A DNA stretch of 64,000 nucleotides. Source: Candidatus Bathyarchaeota archaeon. GTDB taxonomy: Archaea > Thermoproteota > Bathyarchaeia > TCS64. Positions 12,290-19,857 of this stretch are shown piece after piece. The stretch is taken from contig CAVYLP010000001.1 in assembly GCA_963769425.1 (NCBI GenBank), positions 320,001 to 384,000 on the forward strand, in the 5' to 3' direction. The translations under genes were made by a program, and so were the position numbers. Below the pieces are notes generated by a model. The model searched no databases and was not told the DNA's origin. It was given only the letters and a program-made list of their open reading frames with translations. The stretch's first letter is position 1; each line of letters opens with the position of its first letter.

Positions 12290-12375
12290 TTTAGGTCTGA
12301 ATCTTGCGATCTAAAGTTTTGAAAACCTTTGCCGAACTATATATAAAGAAGAAATTTTAATTTCAATTTGATAAT

Positions 12376-12789
12376 ATGAGCGCAAGAGAAGGGACTGAAT
12401 TAAAAGAACCTGCGTCTGAGTTGTTCCGCAAGAGAGTCAAGGAACTGGGCGATTGGCGTGGCGAGACGCTTGAAAGAGTGCGCAGGCTCATCAAGGAGGC
12501 GGACCCGGAGATAGTAGAAGAGTGGAAGTGGGTGAAACCTACGTCGCCTGGAACTCCAGTCTGGTCCCACAACGGCGGCATCTGCACCGGCGAGACCTAC
12601 AAGAGTGTAGTCAAGCTCACTTTCTTCAAGGGTGCTTCGCTGGAGGATCCCGCTCACCTGTTCAACCAGCCTGGGACCGTCAGGCGCGCTATCGACATCC
12701 ATGAAGGCGACAAGATCGATGAAGCTGCGTTTAAGAAACTCATTCGCGAAGCCGTAGCTTTGAACCTCAAGAGCAAAGGGAAACGGTAG
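12376..12789 (+). CDS. DUF1801 (YdhG-like) protein
   Basis: LIKEADPEIVEEWKW..PVWSHNG..VKLTFFKGASLEDP. Confidence 0.85.
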   Translation: MSAREGTELKEPASELFRKRVKELGDWRGETLERVRRLIKEADPEIVEEWKWVKPTSPGTPVWSHNGGICTGETYKSVVKLTFFKGASLEDPAHLFNQPGTVRRAIDIHEGDKIDEAAFKKLIREAVALNLKSKGKR

Positions 12790-12991
12790 ACTTGGACCAT
12801 GAGGACATCCTGTCGTTCTCAGAGCAGCAGATGGATCACCAAGAGCCTATCAAAAATCAAGCCAGCAGCTAGTTTTGGGCATAGAAAAGTACAGGTTGAA
12901 TGCTAAACATGTGCTTGACTCACTCAACCTAGACCAGAAAAACAAAGACCTAACTGACCACTACCACAGAGAAGGACCGTAAGAACAACAA

Positions 12992-13420
12992 TTGAACCAC
13001 TCTCAATGCTCAAAGCCCGCCGTCACCAGCACCCACGTGAAGGCCTACAGTAAAAGAGCCATGGACAACCGAACCGGGAAAAGCGACCCGGATGCGAGGG
13101 TGAGCGTAGAAGAGGAGGCTTCATCCTCGGCTACCGCGTCCACACGGCCCACTGCGCCGACTCCGAGCTGCCCTTGGCATTCACGGTGGCTCCATGCAAC
13201 GAGAACGACAAGGTCTACTTCGAACCGCTGTTAGAGCGGGTTCACCGCCTCGGAGTCAAGTTCAGATCCGTTCTGGCGGATGCGCAGTATAGATCGGTGG
13301 TACGTGACGCGGCTGAGTGGCTCGAGGCTGAGCCGATCATCCCGGCTAAGAGGGACTCCCGGGTTGATGCGGTACTGTGTGTTGGCCGGGACTTCGTTGC
13401 AAGAGGTGCTAAGCAGCCAG
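12992..13420 (+). mobile_element. IS5/IS4-like DDE transposase fragment (pseudogene)
   Basis: STHVKAYS..SDPDAR, GFILGYRVH, LAFTVAPCNEND and VLADAQY across frameshifts. Truncated at a CAGACAGACAAACGCGCGCG junction. Confidence 0.8.
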
Positions 13421-13528
13421 ACAGACAAACGCGCGCGTATAAATTATTAATTAAGGAATATTTTACATTATTTAATTCTATACGAGAAAGGTATAAATGC
13501 TCAATATAATACCGCAAATGAGTTCAGA

Positions 13529-14749
13529 TTGGCGCAGATAGTCACAGCGGCTCAGAGGCGGAACTATTACTTCATCATTGGCTTAGTTGTGATGATGCAG
13601 ATCACCTCGTCGACCATCTACATGGTTCTACCACTCTTCTATGCGAGCGTAGGAGTATCGGTGGCGGAGAATGGCGTCTTAATATCGATAAGCACCTTCA
13701 TGGGGATACTGAGCGGCCTAACCGCAGGGGTTCTATCTAATAGGTACGGGAGGAAGAAGATTCTCACACTGAGCGCCATAATATACTCGGTATCCTATCT
13801 AATGCTCGAGTACATGGGCACAGATTTTGGTAGCCTGGCGCTCTCGAGGATCGTCGCCGGAATAGGATTCTACATGATGCCGGTCATGGTGACCACCATG
13901 GCGGCGGACATATTTCCGATGGGGATCCGCGGGAGGGCCATGAGTCTCTATCAGGCAACGAGCGGGGTAGGCTCGTTGATTGGGCCGCTGATCGTTCCAC
14001 TGCTAATATTTGGAACCGATTTCAGCCATTATTTCCTGTTCTCAGCCATCTCGATCATGATAAGCGGCGTCTTTATGGCCTTCATCATCAAGGAGACGCT
14101 GCCCTCGGAGCTCAAGTCCAGTGTAAACGAGTCTATCCGCAAGAAGCTGAACGTTCGGGGATTCATCACCTCTCTTAGGGGCCTCGGCGTGGTCGTTGGG
14201 ATATTCCTCGGCGCAGTCATCTTCTATAGGACAGCGTACACGATGATCGATCCGTTCCTGAGCCTCTACCTGACAGAGGTGCTCAAACTTAACCTCGACT
14301 CAGTGAGCGCTATATACGCTTCCAGAGCTATATGCTACATCGCGTTCTCCTTCGTTGGTGGCTATCTCATCGATAGGTTCAGCAAGAAGACTGTGCTTCT
14401 GATGGGCCTCGCCATGACCACGATAACCGTCATTAGCTACCCCTTCACCCTGACGTTTCCGCTGATGTTGGTCTTGAGGGCGTGGGACGCCGCTTCTACC
14501 GCCATCTTGATCACGGGGATCTACACGTCGCTGGCCGATTTACTTACGGTGGAGAAACGTGGCCTGGGTATGGGGATCTACTCGGCGACGGCGCAACAGA
14601 GTTCGACTGTTGGCTCCATATTCAGCGGTTTCCTGATTGGGGTTTATGGATTCAACTTTGTTTTCGTAACGGCTGGCATAGCATGCGCCTTATCTTTCCT
14701 GATCTTCTGGAGGTTTGTGCCGGGGGGGAAGAAAGTGGATAAATCGTGA
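13529..14749 (+). CDS. MFS transporter
   Basis: About 12 TM helices; motif A variants GVLSNRYGRK and GYLIDRFSKK. Confidence 0.9.
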   Translation: MAQIVTAAQRRNYYFIIGLVVMMQITSSTIYMVLPLFYASVGVSVAENGVLISISTFMGILSGLTAGVLSNRYGRKKILTLSAIIYSVSYLMLEYMGTDFGSLALSRIVAGIGFYMMPVMVTTMAADIFPMGIRGRAMSLYQATSGVGSLIGPLIVPLLIFGTDFSHYFLFSAISIMISGVFMAFIIKETLPSELKSSVNESIRKKLNVRGFITSLRGLGVVVGIFLGAVIFYRTAYTMIDPFLSLYLTEVLKLNLDSVSAIYASRAICYIAFSFVGGYLIDRFSKKTVLLMGLAMTTITVISYPFTLTFPLMLVLRAWDAASTAILITGIYTSLADLLTVEKRGLGMGIYSATAQQSSTVGSIFSGFLIGVYGFNFVFVTAGIACALSFLIFWRFVPGGKKVDKS

Positions 14750-15154
14750 AAATAGGATGACTTCGTGCATATCTTCAATCATCCCATAACCGAGTCCCGA
14801 ACGGTGTGGCATCGTCTATGTTGCGCGTAAATCACGTGGTGGCAACATCTCAGACGAGGTCATTCATAAGTTGTTCTCCGCGCGTGCAATGAGTATTATA
14901 CAGTGGAAAATGCGCACGCAAGCATGAGAAATCTCGGCAGCGGAAAGCAATAATTACCAACATATATATTTCTTAATAAACCTCTGAAATGATGATTTTC
15001 ATGGCTCCAAACCTTAAGAATAAAATGTTCCTAGATGGCGAGTAGGTTGACTGATGAGGCGCGCGCGGGCCATAGCCTTATCCCCCCAAACCCAAACCCC
15101 TTTTTTTTTGTGTTTTTCTTAAACCAGCGATTAGTTGATTATCAGCATGTGCAC

Positions 15155-15174
15155 GGTGGAAGTGAGGATAAGAC
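15155..15174. repeat. 20-bp direct repeat GGTGGAAGTGAGGATAAGAC, copy 1
   Basis: Exact match to 15982-16001. Confidence 0.9.
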
Positions 15175-15254
15175 ATCCGCCAGACAAATACTTTTACATT
15201 AGATGAGGCTAATGCCAAAGAAGCTTTGGAATATATTTCGAGTATTTTATGCTA

Positions 15255-15923
15255 TTAGGCTAATCCAAGTACTCTCCCAGTTAGCTCAGTCCAGTCCTTA
15301 TCGACGGCCTCCCGAATGAGAGACTTAAGACCCGAAAATACCTGAGGAGGCATCAGATTCATCCATCCCTTAGTTAGGATAACTTGGTCATCCTGCTTCA
15401 GCAGAGGGAAAAGCCACCTCACCAAGAGGGGAGTCTTTTCCTGAGGCACACTCCTCGCCATGACCCCAACAATGGACACTTGTTCATCCAACCCCGTATT
15501 CTCTCGGAGAGTCGGGTACAGATAGGTGTCCTCCTTGTAGAGGTGAATCCTAAGATGTGACCTCAAGACAGCCGTCGCCCTGGCAACCACAAGGGGATCA
15601 GTTGCAGCACTCATCACACCTAGCCCAGCGACCATATCATCCAGTTCACGATGATCAGTGACATATGTCTTAGCTAGGAGCGGCGCCACCTTATCGACCG
15701 CCGGGAAGACTGCCTCCTCCTCACCCTTTGCATGGTAATTCAAAATCTCTCCAGTGACCTTCATTCGGTTAAGAATAGGAGTAAAATCTCCGCGGGTCCT
15801 TACCGTTTTTAAGGTATCCTCATCTATCTCCAGCAAGTCCCTGCGAAATGCGTTGTGAAAGCAGCGTACTACGTCAATTGGTCCGAAGTCCGTCCATTTG
15901 TTCACATCTGTGCCCATGTTCAT
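15255..15923 (-). CDS. Hemerythrin/HHE domain protein
   Basis: HNAFRRDL, HAKGEEE, DHRELD, HLYKED. Confidence 0.85.
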   Translation of the reverse strand: MNMGTDVNKWTDFGPIDVVRCFHNAFRRDLLEIDEDTLKTVRTRGDFTPILNRMKVTGEILNYHAKGEEEAVFPAVDKVAPLLAKTYVTDHRELDDMVAGLGVMSAATDPLVVARATAVLRSHLRIHLYKEDTYLYPTLRENTGLDEQVSIVGVMARSVPQEKTPLLVRWLFPLLKQDDQVILTKGWMNLMPPQVFSGLKSLIREAVDKDWTELTGRVLGLA

Positions 15924-15981
15924 GTCGATTATCTTCTCTTAATCCCTTAAATTAAATCTGTGTGAATTAAAACTAGCATCA

Positions 15982-16022
15982 GGTGGAAGTGAGGATAAGA
16001 CTATGGTTATCACCCAAACCCC
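15982..16022. repeat. Dyad site containing copy 2 of the 20-bp repeat (GGTGGAAGTGAGGATAAGACTATGGTTATCACCCAAACCCC)
   Basis: Exact 20-mer match to 15155-15174, GATAA/TTATC dyad, and 13/14 inverted match to 15070-15083. Confidence 0.8.
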
Positions 16023-16172
16023 AGTTTTCTATCCTTCATACCTGTCTAACAATCTCCCTTCTACTCTCACATACTCTTACTCTCTCTCTGGGTCAGACAG
16101 ACAAACAGACAGGGAAACGAACAGGCAAACAAATAAGAAGTATTAAAAGAGTTAAAAAAATATTTTATTTCG

Positions 16173-17033
16173 ATGTCTGAGATTAAAGTCAATTATATTC
16201 GTTTATCTTTGTTCAGAAATATCTCTTTATTAATCGTCCTATTTGGGTGGAGCATATATAATATAATGGGTGGAATCTTTAATTCAATTTATTTTTATCA
16301 ATATTTTACACAAGGTTTTTTATACTATGAACTATTAGAGAGCCTAATTTCCTCCTTTTCAGGAATACTATTATTATTCCTACTCATTGATATTTTACGT
16401 TCGAAAGAAATTACTCAACGAAATAGACTTGAGATAGTAAGCTTGTTTTTACTTCAGATAATATATCAAATAGCAAGACCCGTCTCTATGTTATACTTTA
16501 ATTTATCATCTATAAGTTTTCAACCACTTGACATTTCTAATTATACTCTATCTATATCTATAGCTATATTTAGTATTATTTTATATATTTATATAATCAG
16601 GAATATTTCCTATGGGTTAAATTTAATTAATGAAAATATACTCATATTAATTTTCTTTATATTTACAAGTTTTTCAATATATCAATTGTTGTATTATATT
16701 AATTATTTTGAGGGTCACTTATTCTATTTTTTCCAAATTAGTTCATTTGAATTAATATATTTGGTGGCTACATTTTTTTCCCTTAAGTTGTATCAAAAAT
16801 TTAGAAAAAATGATCTATCAGACCTTGTTATGCCTATCTATCTCAGAATCGCCCTTTTTGAGTTCGGATTTATGGGTCTTGCAAGTGTATACTTTTTACT
16901 CATTAGTAATGGTCGCATTTTGTTATATGGAGGGGTGTTAATTGGTGAGATGCCCAATATCTGGAGTTTTGTATATTACATTGGTTTTATGGCATTATCT
17001 TTCTTACCCCTAAAGATTATCTTCGATAAATAA
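16173..17033 (+). CDS. Hypothetical polytopic membrane protein, very AT-rich
   Basis: 286-aa ORF with about 8 hydrophobic segments, rich in I/L/F/Y. Confidence 0.6.
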   Translation: MSEIKVNYIRLSLFRNISLLIVLFGWSIYNIMGGIFNSIYFYQYFTQGFLYYELLESLISSFSGILLLFLLIDILRSKEITQRNRLEIVSLFLLQIIYQIARPVSMLYFNLSSISFQPLDISNYTLSISIAIFSIILYIYIIRNISYGLNLINENILILIFFIFTSFSIYQLLYYINYFEGHLFYFFQISSFELIYLVATFFSLKLYQKFRKNDLSDLVMPIYLRIALFEFGFMGLASVYFLLISNGRILLYGGVLIGEMPNIWSFVYYIGFMALSFLPLKIIFDK

Positions 17034-17109
17034 AACTCCAAAGAGTTAATCAATCAAACTGCGCAATGTCCGGGCTGGGTAGAACGGTATTATGCGTGCG
17101 CACATTATT

Positions 17110-17223
17110 GTTAAGATTAATGACTCTAGGATCCCAATTTTTAGTCTCACCCCTAAGATACTTAGCGAATAATAGAGACTCTTCATTTATCAGCGTCTCT
17201 TGGGTCTGGTGCTCCCCGTTCCT
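17110..17223 (-). pseudogene. cas1: Probable C-terminal fragment of an archaeal solo (non-CRISPR) Cas1
   Basis: RNGEHQTQETLINEESLLFAKYLRGETKNWDPRV resembles the recalled Bathyarchaeia-type Cas1 tail QT.ETLINEEALLLAKYLR.E...W.PR. Recognised from memory, not searched. Confidence 0.6.
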
Positions 17224-17325
17224 GTTATCTAGACAAAGCGCAGGAATGACGCAACAGGTTAACCAAAAATTAACGTCAGAGTGCTTAAATGAGGTTGGAA
17301 GTATTCGACGCGCACGCAAACGCAC

Positions 17326-17952
17326 TCAGACATTTCCCCACTTATTGTAGTGTAGTTTATCCTTGAGCGTAACGGTCTTCTGCCTAACAGAATAGTCCAT
17401 GGGGTAGCCAATCGGAATCGCCGCTGCCACCTCATAACCATCAGGCACGCCCAGAACCTTCTTGAGAACAACCGTCTCACGAGGCACACTGGTAACCCCA
17501 TATAACCCCTCCGCAGCCATCGCCAGCATGATGTTCTCTATGCACATCCAGATAGAAGCCAAATCGTTCAGGTCATACAGAATCTCGCATTCCTTCAGAG
17601 GCTTCCTCAACCTATAGCAGACGACAAGCAGCTCCGGCGAGGTCACCAGCATCTTCACCTGAACCGGCAGCGCCTTACGATACATCTCCCTCTGCAGCTC
17701 ATCCGACCAATTGTTTAACGCCTTTTCGAGCTCCATCTCGTTCGTGATGTTCTTCCCCTTCGAGACCAGCTCCGCGACCTTTACCCTCTGCTCAGGGTCT
17801 TTAACGAGGATGAACTCCCACTGCCGGAGATGGTTATTTGACGGTGCTTTTAGCCCCGCCTCTAGAACTCTACGGAGCTTCTCTTCTTCTACGGATCTTG
17901 ACTGAAACTCCCTCACGCTTCTTCGATTGTTGACCGCTTCGTAAAACTCCAA
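17326..17952 (-). CDS. Nitroreductase family protein
   Basis: RRSVREF, APSNNHLRQWEF, IENIMLA..AEGL, IPIGYP. Confidence 0.9.
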   Translation of the reverse strand: MEFYEAVNNRRSVREFQSRSVEEEKLRRVLEAGLKAPSNNHLRQWEFILVKDPEQRVKVAELVSKGKNITNEMELEKALNNWSDELQREMYRKALPVQVKMLVTSPELLVVCYRLRKPLKECEILYDLNDLASIWMCIENIMLAMAAEGLYGVTSVPRETVVLKKVLGVPDGYEVAAAIPIGYPMDYSVRQKTVTLKDKLHYNKWGNV

Positions 17953-18192
17953 CTAAGATGCCACCTTGCTATATTCATAAGATAATGTTTGTATTAAGTT
18001 GACGAAAACGGATCCTTTTTAGTTTTGAACCTGATTTGTGGATTTGGTGTTCAAAGTGTTCTTGATGAAGATGTGGGGTGAATGAGGCATCTAATAGGAT
18101 GATCTTCTAAACAACCAAGCTCGCGATTCAGCGGATCGAAATATAAGAATAGATTTAATTCATACCCATACAATGTATAACATAGGTCAAGT

Positions 18193-18435
18193 ATGACTGA
18201 GGTTCAGGTAACCAGCAAGGGGCAGATAACCATCCCCTCGGAACTCAGACGCAAATACAACATAGAGGAAGGCGGTAGGGTCCAAGTCGTCGAGGAAGAC
18301 GGGAAGATCGTAGTCAAAAAAGCGATCAGCTTCTACGACCTCGCCGGATCAGCTGTGGGAGAAGCCACAGTCGAGGAGCTAAAAGAGACGCTGGACGAGA
18401 TGAGAAAAGACGATGAAGAAAACCAGCGTCTATGA
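18193..18435 (+). CDS. vapB: AbrB/MazE-family antitoxin (VapB)
   Basis: VTSKGQITIPSELRRKYNIEEG; overlaps the PIN gene. Confidence 0.9.
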   Translation: MTEVQVTSKGQITIPSELRRKYNIEEGGRVQVVEEDGKIVVKKAISFYDLAGSAVGEATVEELKETLDEMRKDDEENQRL

Positions 18436-18811
18436 CACGAGATACTTCGTCGAATACTTCTACTCCGGAGACGAGGAGGCTGTAAGAGCCCTAAAAAAAG
18501 ACGCGCGAGAAACAGGTGAGAAAATCGTCTCCACGGTGACCATCCATGAATTCTATAGAATAAACCTAGGCAAAGCAGGTAGAGAAGCAGCACAACTCAG
18601 ATGTAACGCCATAAGAAACGAGTTCAAGATAATTGACCTTGACTATGAGCAAGCTCTGCTCAGCGCCCAGATAAGAAACGAGGCTCCGATCCCCTTCGCA
18701 GACAGCGTTATCGCCGCCGCGGCACTATCGAGAGGCTGCCCAGTCGTTTCAGACGACAATCACTTCAAAAAGGTACAGAGATTACAAACGCGCTGGCCCG
18801 TTCCAAGGTAA
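18413..18811 (+). CDS. vapC: PIN-domain toxin (VapC)
   Basis: YDT, TIHEF, FADSVIAA and VSDDNHF acidic quartet. Confidence 0.9.
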   Translation: MKKTSVYDTRYFVEYFYSGDEEAVRALKKDARETGEKIVSTVTIHEFYRINLGKAGREAAQLRCNAIRNEFKIIDLDYEQALLSAQIRNEAPIPFADSVIAAAALSRGCPVVSDDNHFKKVQRLQTRWPVPR

Positions 18812-18924
18812 TTGTATACGGTCGAATGGGCGCGCGCGTCTAGCGTATACGTAAAAAAAATATTTGTTTGCGGATAAGACAGAAGAATGGCTTTTGAGTG
18901 AGTTCGACTCTTTAGACCTTTAAC

Positions 18925-19857
18925 TTGAGAAATACATGGAAGTATTCCGGTCCCATTTTTGATGCGCATACACACATTGGAACAATCACTGAAATATCTA
19001 GGATGATTGCCATCGAAGATGATTTTGGGATTTCAAAACAGATTGGAATTGTACATAATGAAGAAGGATTTCAGGCTGCAAAAGAGAAGTATCCAAACAG
19101 GTTCATCTTCGCAAAATATCTCTCCCTGAAAGATATAGCCAAGTACAACGTGGAACCCGTTCTTAATGAGATAGCTAAACTCAAAGATCAGGGCTATTCC
19201 CTCGCCAAGTCATGGTTTGGCCCCCGCTGGCGTGACTGGGTTGATGTTCCGAAGGATTTTCGGATTAATCACCCCAAACTAGAGCCCATTTTTCAGGCCC
19301 TAGAGGACAACGGGATACCACTCATCATTCACATGGGTGATCCCGACACCTATTACGCGACTCAGTATAAGGACTCGGAGAAATATGGTACTAAGGATGA
19401 GCACCTCAAACAGATGGAGGATGTCTTATCCAGTCACCCTAAACTAAAGTTTCAGATCCCTCACTTTGGTGCACAGCCTGAGATACATAGGTTACCCAAT
19501 CTGACTAGGTGGATGGACAAGTTTCCCAATGTCGTAGTCGATACAGCTTCGTCAAGATGGATGGCCCGAGAGTTGAGCAAGGACTCGAGGAAGGCTCGGG
19601 AATTCATGTTAAGGTACTCGGATAGGGTCCTGTTTGGGACCGACATCGAATCCGATCAGGATGACCGTGATTACTTCTCTGGCCGATACGTTGCGCAGAG
19701 AATTCTGTGGGAGACAAATGAACGAGATACTCCACTGCCTTTCCCTGACGCTGACACTAAGGATACTGGTGGAACGGTGATCAATGGTCTTGATCTACCT
19801 CTTTCAAGTCTTGAAAAGTTGTATTGGGAGAATGCAAGGCGATTATATATGGTGTAG
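18925..19857 (+). CDS. Amidohydrolase_2 family metal-dependent hydrolase
   Basis: DAHTH, IIHMGD, PHFG, LFGTD, LYWENARRL. Confidence 0.85.
   Translation: MRNTWKYSGPIFDAHTHIGTITEISRMIAIEDDFGISKQIGIVHNEEGFQAAKEKYPNRFIFAKYLSLKDIAKYNVEPVLNEIAKLKDQGYSLAKSWFGPRWRDWVDVPKDFRINHPKLEPIFQALEDNGIPLIIHMGDPDTYYATQYKDSEKYGTKDEHLKQMEDVLSSHPKLKFQIPHFGAQPEIHRLPNLTRWMDKFPNVVVDTASSRWMARELSKDSRKAREFMLRYSDRVLFGTDIESDQDDRDYFSGRYVAQRILWETNERDTPLPFPDADTKDTGGTVINGLDLPLSSLEKLYWENARRLYMV

Follow-up and report, generated by a model that had tools for sequence, protein, structure and literature searches.

Cas1 is thought to have been derived from a transposon, the casposon, before its recruitment to CRISPR spacer capture, and two kinds of stand-alone Cas1 are known: casposon integrases, which travel together with a DNA polymerase, and lineage-specific genes that are inactive. 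Here we describe a remnant of a stand-alone cas1 gene in a Candidatus Bathyarchaeota archaeon (assembly GCA_963769425.1), found in a 64,000-nucleotide stretch of contig CAVYLP010000001.1 (positions 320,001 to 384,000 of the forward strand; hereafter "the window"), together with the clade of solo Cas1 proteins from which it came and the related relics of its own and other genomes. A full-text literature search found no paper describing solo Cas1 of Bathyarchaeia.

The account of casposons in PMC4046053 gives a median target duplication of 15 nt, names tRNA and aEF-2 genes as being targeted at their 3′ ends, and places the Cas1 catalytic residues at E141, H208, D218, and D221 of E. coli Cas1. 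The Bathyarchaeia loci resemble casposons in their stand-alone Cas1, with catalytic residues kept in full-length relatives and no CRISPR array; in the several copies and relics per genome; and in the helix–turn–helix (HTH) genes that adjoin cas1. A sister copy of the window relic (at C6 of the same genome) also has a duplication of ~13 bp at a gene 3′ end, comparable to the casposon median of 15 in that account (PMC4046053). They differ from casposons in that no PolB was found beside cas1 in the loci examined, in a Cas1 that by profile score is nearer the CRISPR type, and in a full-length cas1 unit without defined terminal inverted repeats or duplications. The same source describes a Cas1-solo group 1 in Methanomicrobiales, with an incomplete active-site set and, in that description, no sign of horizontal transfer (PMC4046053). 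Both that group, as characterized there, and the present clade are stand-alone cas1 genes outside CRISPR loci in one archaeal lineage (PMC4046053), but the Bathyarchaeia clade keeps E, H, and D..E, and is multi-copy, patchy, and surrounded by relics. With CRISPR adaptation modules the clade has in common the PF01867 family and a tail (..LRG....P) that aligns with the solved CRISPR Cas1 8d3l, whereas the solo cas1 loci are without Cas2, array, or nearby effector genes. Finally, derivatives like miniature inverted-repeat transposable elements, and deletions caused by insertion sequences (IS), provide a parallel for nested copies that keep one end, a short end motif, and a break point common to two sites; here, however, the retained coding piece is Cas1 rather than a DDE transposase, and the ends of the 2.86-kb insertion that carries the sister copy are asymmetric.

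A cas1 tail and its parent clade

The gap at 17034–17325 separates two convergent genes, an AT-rich membrane open reading frame (ORF) and a nitroreductase gene, and within it the span 17091–17250 encloses a Cas1 C-terminal remnant on the minus strand. The original prediction had recognized about 38 codons of a Cas1 C-terminus here; the identity holds, and the length comes to 34 codons. By tblastn the tail peptide is 88% identical to residues 307–340 of P0002, which carries the NCBI name Cas1 of Candidatus Bathyarchaeota. A search of 5.8 billion proteins for longer relatives of the peptide returned 12 matches among 48 candidates (E 5.0e-10 to 3.3e-7); all 12 contain PF01867, and in all 12, which are proteins of ~343 aa, the peptide aligns with the final ~35 residues. 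Taken alone, the 91-aa frame has no match in Pfam, NCBIfam, or PDB, and the portions of the frame outside the tail match no family in Pfam or NCBIfam. For the tail peptide itself the lack of a Pfam match is expected, because the PF01867 model stops at residue 284 of the 343-aa relative P0003. The whole catalytic domain is missing, only residues about 307–340 being left, and the frame has lost the natural cas1 stop and overruns the usual Cas1 end by about 19 codons. The sequence at 17223..17122 is thus the non-functional terminal 34 codons of a stand-alone cas1 gene of a Bathyarchaeia-specific clade. By itself the fragment is an ordinary pseudogene relic, and it is the lineage-wide relic pattern, rather than the fragment, that carries the interest.

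The parent proteins are well-defined members of the Cas1 family: P0003 matches PF01867 at 7.6e-45 over residues 8–284, and the IEGK, GFLH, and DFQE motifs of the full-length relatives align with the catalytic positions of the Archaeoglobus Cas1 structure 4n06, with E, H, and D..E kept. The tail, ETLINEE..LFAKYLRGE, hardly varies even between subfamilies whose overall identity is 40–50%. A profile of the relatives finds 4n06 as its best structure (9.1e-27), and the casposase 6opm follows at 1.2e-14. The relic is therefore not that of a classical casposon, as the original prediction had also suggested, since the Cas1 profile is nearer the CRISPR-type 4n06 than the casposase; further, the genome has no match to the protein-primed PolB family PF03175 at E ≤ 1 (PF00136 was not searched for), and in the loci examined there is no PolB of any kind beside cas1 and no polymerase among the recurrent neighbours.

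At E ≤ 1e-10 the clade comprises 2134 proteins, and it is represented at 510 confirmed metagenome loci. Of its 38 genome loci, 36 have a title that names Bathyarchaeia or Bathyarchaeota, L023 and L025 being the two that do not. A 20-mer test detected no CRISPR array in the 2.55-Mb genome, and the best genome match to Cas2 reaches 15.1 bits against a cut-off of 23.8; the earlier observation that the window holds neither array nor PolB thus extends to the genome, which is without an array, a Cas2 above cut-off, or PF03175. Nor is there a CRISPR-like array within 4–10 kb of 41 loci (L001–L041) or of 80 metagenome loci. The parent family is solo and apparently active. Its recurrent neighbours are an upstream HTH protein and two small proteins without family, and searches of these neighbours against Pfam, PHROGs, and PADLOC assigned none to a family.

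A composite copied as a unit

The relic is the inner part of a larger composite. Read from the synteny break in the cas1 direction, the order is TT, GCGTGCGCGTC, then ~95 nt on CCTGCGCTTTGTCTAG, the cas1 codons, and an inverted CG-rich motif; the outer end GCGTGCGCGTC at 17307..17317 is separated from the nitroreductase stop codon by 8 nt and from the break at 17319/17320 by 2 nt. A second tail, at C6:279033–279080 of the same genome, has the same outer end. Among the four genomic occurrences of GCGTGCGCGTC, where about two would be expected by chance, two are the outer ends of these leader-plus-tail composites. Both copies also have the CCTGCGCTTTGTCTAG junction before the identical cas1 codon, a pattern restricted to L045 and L047 among 58 loci, and the local alignment of the two leaders was reached in 0 of 500 shuffles.

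A 2.86-kb segment (L045 4834–7697), with an ABC-transporter operon inside, has the C6 tail as its left end. This segment is absent in three relatives (G007, G017, and G020), with an empty site in G007 and G017. The target sequence is present once in both G007 (as ATTATAACTAGAA) and G017, but twice in the own genome, as ATTATAACTAAAA / ATAATAACTAGAAAA, giving a target duplication of ~13 bp (11/13 identical) that overlaps a glycosyltransferase gene at its stop codon. The insertion has GCGTGCGCGTC at its left end and GACGCGCGC 36 nt inside its right end. Given the leader end and junction common to the window and C6 copies, and an insertion with target duplication, the leader-plus-tail composite was copied as a unit, at least once within an insertion with a ~13-bp duplication; and because a sister copy with the same leader and break heads a clean insertion, the relic moved with mobile DNA. 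G020 has a different insert of ~330 bp at the glycosyltransferase site, starting GTGCGTGTG. A third tail (G007:C26) has the identical break codon and a CG motif a few nucleotides behind an apparent stop codon, and the similarity of its leader is marginal (6 of 500 shuffles).

The window copy itself stands at the border of strain-specific DNA. G007, the closest relative, has 113 unrelated bases in place of window positions 12877–17319, flanked by matches of 94–95% identity (L048 834–1387 to window 12324–12876, and L048 1501–2194 to window 17320–18012), and homology restarts 6 nt past the stop codon of the nitroreductase gene, at 17320. The junction motifs that the original prediction had placed on both sides of the fragment are present as a perfect CG-rich 9-bp inverted repeat, TGCGTGCGC at 17093–17101 and GCGCACGCA at 17310–17318, although this repeat alone is marginal, being reached in 9 of 100 shuffles. 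As for the broader idea of a relic left by a Cas1-driven mobile element, the mobile DNA is borne out by the sister insertion and by the position at the block edge; Cas1 as the driver is not, no full-length unit with ends having been found.

Relics of cas1 are one-sided. The own genome holds six C-terminal tails (that of the window and five others), one full-length cas1 with two frameshifts (C4:211335–212363), and a single N-terminal piece (C6:728068–728602, L046 5069–5603; residues 7–183, 42% identity to P0003). This N-terminal half is of a divergent type, with one in-frame TGA and no CG motif at its break. A whole-protein six-frame search of five other related genomes gave 54 rows. These comprise 6 copies that are intact, 1 full-length copy with a frameshift (spread over 2 rows), 2 rows that are second pieces, and 44 partial places. 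The partial copies start anywhere between residues 43 and 315, and 34 of the 44 reach residue 336 or beyond; 40 reach at least residue 322 (of 343) and 4 do not. With one contig-edge piece set aside, the long pieces (about 100 aa or more) of 72–87% identity number 8 C-terminal and 0 N-terminal-only, so the ease of detecting the conserved tail does not explain the asymmetry. By whole-protein tblastn, the five extra partial copies in the flanks of the 80 metagenome loci are also all C-terminal.

Several tails carry stops or indels, and the other tails of the own genome have an in-frame stop or deletions. Differences between tails fall mostly at third codon positions, and no two copies exceed about 82% identity at the DNA level. 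The tails therefore derive from different functional genes, out of which they were cut, with no recent multiplication. In a blastn-short comparison of the 400-nt flanks of all copies, nothing was common except the downstream gene of a second subfamily.

Candidate movers and rival explanations

Of 35 truncated copies, 13 have the hexamer (GC)3 of the CG-rich motif within −50 to +40 nt of their 5′ break, where 1.27 would be expected at random positions of the copies' own loci, and the (GC)n motif often abuts cas1 sequence directly, at differing codons. As controls, (GC)3 is found at 3.7% of ordinary gene starts and within 120 nt behind 11.9–14.3% of ordinary stop codons of these loci; behind long ORFs, at the same distance, the frequency is 12–14% in L004–L041 and L066–L145, and 3.3% in 195 kb sampled from the own genome. 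The motif is genuinely enriched at the 5′ break, and the frequencies behind ORFs suggest that it is a general mark of the borders of acquired segments. A CG motif behind the cas1 stop was considered as a right-end mark and dropped (11/70, against 14.3% behind other genes), and a CG-pentamer profile in 50-nt bins was not convincing.

In L006 an intact DDE transposase (PF01609, 2.7e-25; PF05598, 1.5e-16) is bounded by ~26-nt inverted repeats with outer GCGCGC, and the right end of this IS directly abuts a 5′-truncated HTH gene, followed by full cas1. The end signature, GCGCGC-N-TGTTTAGAAATT, is found at L006, L015, and L033 and at five more places in the own genome; neither the window relic nor its C6 sister has it, the (GC)n part alone being shared. 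An inverted pair of the signature, at C6:30995 and C6:31679 (684 bp apart), has the look of a miniature derived from the DDE IS. The broken transposase remnant in the left part of the window block is 66–76% identical to the L006 transposase by tblastn and belongs to the same IS family as that element.

The explanation that we tentatively favour, at slightly short of an even chance when taken together with the observed parts, is Cas1-driven movement of a deletion derivative of a cas1-bearing unit. The ancestral mobile unit would have consisted of a left end, an HTH gene, cas1, cargo, and a right end; an internal deletion, reaching from just inside the left end into cas1, would have produced the leader-plus-tail composite; and this composite may then have been copied to new sites, directly behind stop codons. 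The most likely mover would be a full-length solo Cas1 that acts in trans as an integrase of the casposase kind, lacking a polymerase of its own. The window relic would now be inert, the edge marker of an acquired patchwork that may comprise the IS remnant, an MFS transporter gene, a hemerythrin gene, and the AT-rich membrane gene.

Several results weigh against this explanation. The analysis found no full-length cas1 unit with ends or a duplication that could be defined, and Smith–Waterman comparisons with shuffles around 26 stubs gave no general direct or inverted repeats. The insertion that carries the sister copy has 36 extra nucleotides past its right CG motif, so that its ends are asymmetric; the window relic has no flanking target duplication, and the comparison with G007 does not give a clean empty site. 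Copies are no more than about 82% identical in DNA and their homology ends at start and stop codons, so recent transposition is not seen. The 5′-break enrichment replicates weakly in metagenome loci (2/8, against 0.33 expected), and the CG motif behind cas1 stops (11/70) is no commoner than behind other genes (14.3%). Moreover, (GC)n is the outer end of the DDE IS repeats in L006 and abuts truncated cas1 in L015. A scan of IMG/VR with the Cas1 alignment gave 69 pattern matches, of which 0 were confirmed.

The main rival, unlikely though far from negligible, is that DDE transposons or their miniatures with (GC)n ends inserted in or beside solo cas1 operons, caused deletions of varying length into HTH–cas1 that begin exactly at the IS end, and moved cargo and tails, with Cas1 as a passenger or a decaying defence gene. 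Insertion sequences are classically known to cause nested deletions with one end fixed at a transposon terminus. An intact IS end stands directly against a truncated HTH gene and full cas1 in L006, the repeat signature abuts the truncated cas1 of L015, the miniature pair lies at C6:30995/31679, a remnant of an L006-type transposase sits inside the window block, and (GC)3 behind stop codons is generally common in islands (12–14%). However, only two CG-capped junctions have the IS repeat signature, and the transposase of this IS lies near cas1 in one locus only; at the junctions of the L007 stub, L026, and the window, the upstream gene and the truncated cas1 are too close together for an IS to fit; the ~13-bp duplication exceeds the length typical of IS5-like elements; and IS activity by itself leaves the near-exclusive 5′ truncation unexplained. 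That the relic never moved, and is what is left of a horizontally acquired solo cas1 decaying in place in a recombination hot spot, its conserved tail being the part easiest to detect, is improbable. A near-constant tail does keep short, old tails detectable, several tails contain stops or indels, and the gene order around cas1 and the nitroreductase is scrambled gene by gene between genomes; but in-place decay does not account for the 8 C-terminal against 0 N-terminal-only long, high-identity partial copies, for the non-cas1 leader end and junction common to the window and C6 copies, or for a C6 copy that lies inside an insertion with target duplication.

A function for the tail itself is also conceivable, with truncated Cas1 or tail peptides binding full-length Cas1 or its partners and inhibiting integration as truncated transposases do in some transposons, although we regard this as highly improbable. 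The frame 17325..17050 has a GTG start and stays open over 91 codons, 6 of 12 partial copies of at least about 100 aa are stop-free (frames of 107–271 codons), a 135-codon stop-to-stop frame in L038 ends in a Cas1 tail, and tail differences are mostly third-position. Yet that last pattern is equally expected for recent cuts from different functional genes, the window frame no longer has the natural stop and shows no match for its 35 upstream codons, other tails of the own genome have an in-frame stop or deletions, and the stretch is in no public RNA run and matches no Rfam family (window 15000–19000, E ≤ 1). An ordinary CRISPR-Cas locus that decayed in place is close to refuted: Cas1 is a hallmark of adaptation modules and the best structure match is the CRISPR-associated 4n06, but there is no array in the genome, near the 41 loci, or near the 80 metagenome loci, no Cas2 above the cut-off, the flanks are nitroreductase and AT-rich membrane genes, and the whole block is missing in the closest relative.

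Movement by solo Cas1, if generalized, would describe polymerase-less, IS-like transposons of Bathyarchaeia that have a CRISPR-type Cas1 as transposase, CG-rich ends, cargo, a duplication of ~13–15 bp behind stop codons, and a nested set of 5′-deleted, tail-only derivatives to which the window fragment would belong. We consider this extension doubtful; if it is true, an integrase free of PolB, Cas2, and repeats would be a living intermediate between casposons and the CRISPR adaptation module. What is at hand is a very large environmental clade with catalytic residues kept and no array, Cas2, or PolB, whose genes occupy strain-variable islands and have given rise to tail-only relics. If the clade moves DNA, its members would be the simplest Cas1 mobile elements known, and the step from integrase to adaptation would become testable in the laboratory; if it does not, the one-sided decay and an active solo Cas1 function would still need explaining. 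In either case, Cas1 tails should be annotated as pseudogene relics and may serve as useful markers of island borders.

Flanking genes, islands, and minor motifs

The features in and around the relic are collected in Table 1.

Table 1. Features in and around the cas1 relic, in positions of the window
Feature	Position	Strand	Basis or remark
4.44-kb block missing in closest relative G007; relic at its right edge	12877..17319	.	synteny comparison
Broken DDE transposase remnant, left part of block	12992..13509	+	PF01609, 9.8e-6
AT-rich 286-aa multi-pass membrane ORF, convergent with relic	16173..17033	+	GC 17.5–30%
Stop-to-stop frame of 91 codons, holds relic	17050..17325	-	natural stop lost; about 19 codons past the usual Cas1 end
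Inverted CG-rich motif TGCGTGCGC just behind cas1 tail	17093..17101	.	pairs with 17310–17318
cas1 tail, last 34 codons, RNGEHQ...WDPRV	17122..17223	-	tblastn, protein search, alignment
Leader between CG-rich end and cas1 tail	17224..17306	-	contains CCTGCGCTTTGTCTAG at 17229–17244
Leader outer end, GCGTGCGCGTC	17307..17317	-	exact 11-mer, 4 copies in 2.55-Mb genome
Nitroreductase gene, host-side neighbour	17326..17952	-	PF00881, 1.2e-22

The very AT-rich neighbour gene of the original prediction was recovered as the ORF at 16173–17033. It has no match in Pfam, NCBIfam, or PHROGs, and a comparison with the ESM Atlas gave a top score of 0.87 and no family; over its 5′ part it matches the end of a G007 contig at 83% identity. 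No tie between the relic and the prediction's dyad and CAGAC motifs was found. GGATAAGAC, at 15993, has 24 matches in the window against 16.2 expected, not above chance. It is part of a ~30-nt motif containing CATCAGGTGGAAGTGAGGATAAGAC, at 15974–16007 and 15201–15233, with dozens of copies in 12 out of 17 further genomes from the genus, in places arranged in runs at 0.6–1.1 kb spacing (G007:C34). This motif looks like a shared ribosome-binding or start region, or a cassette border, and its reverse complement sits between leader end and tail in the G007:C26 copy. Short CAGAC/AAACAGAC-like repeats lie at 16085–16135, between the ~30-nt motif and the AT-rich ORF. The 10-bp direct repeat AAAGAGTTAA on both sides of this ORF (16146–16155 and 17040–17049) could be chance in AT-rich DNA. 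A (GC)n motif with a TATA-like box is found at 13430, upstream of the MFS transporter gene.

On the host side, nitroreductase homology stops about 6 nt behind the stop codon in six genomes. The gene forms a single-gene block (17320–18012), the six genomes having only ~690 bp in common and each differing beyond ~6 nt past the stop and upstream of the start. A pair encoding a MazE-like antitoxin and a PIN-domain toxin follows at 18193–18811; a clean insertion of the region 18013–18884 was ruled out, G007 having 346 unrelated bases there. No public sequencing run contains half of the words of window 16000–18100, the best share being 0.18, and the four runs examined gave short contigs with no joints and no empty-site form. 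Contigs of run X1 span 17033–17157 and 17295–17445 with 3 differences each; this run is possibly the source sample and gives no independent support.

Two further candidates concerning the cas1 islands were rejected. That AT-rich islands always lie behind the cas1 3′ end failed across 38 loci, and the L007 island failed as an empty-site test, replacing a 3.4-kb high-GC segment of the own genome. Low-GC islands around cas1 contain genes of a defence-like character. In the L007 island (L007 6716–12753), proteins with a NERD nuclease domain and a RelA/SpoT domain are encoded between a cas1 stub and full cas1, and the low-GC island around cas1 on C4 of the own genome (L042, C4:203000–217000) encodes a weakly Shedu/SduA-like protein. 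In the second Cas1 subfamily, a gene for a 121-aa protein with HELYHH (HExxH-like) lies directly downstream of cas1 (L010 11006–11371, L016 10556–10924, and L022 3582–3950), and it is retained beside 5′-truncated copies of cas1; the protein belongs to no family in Pfam, PHROGs, or PADLOC.

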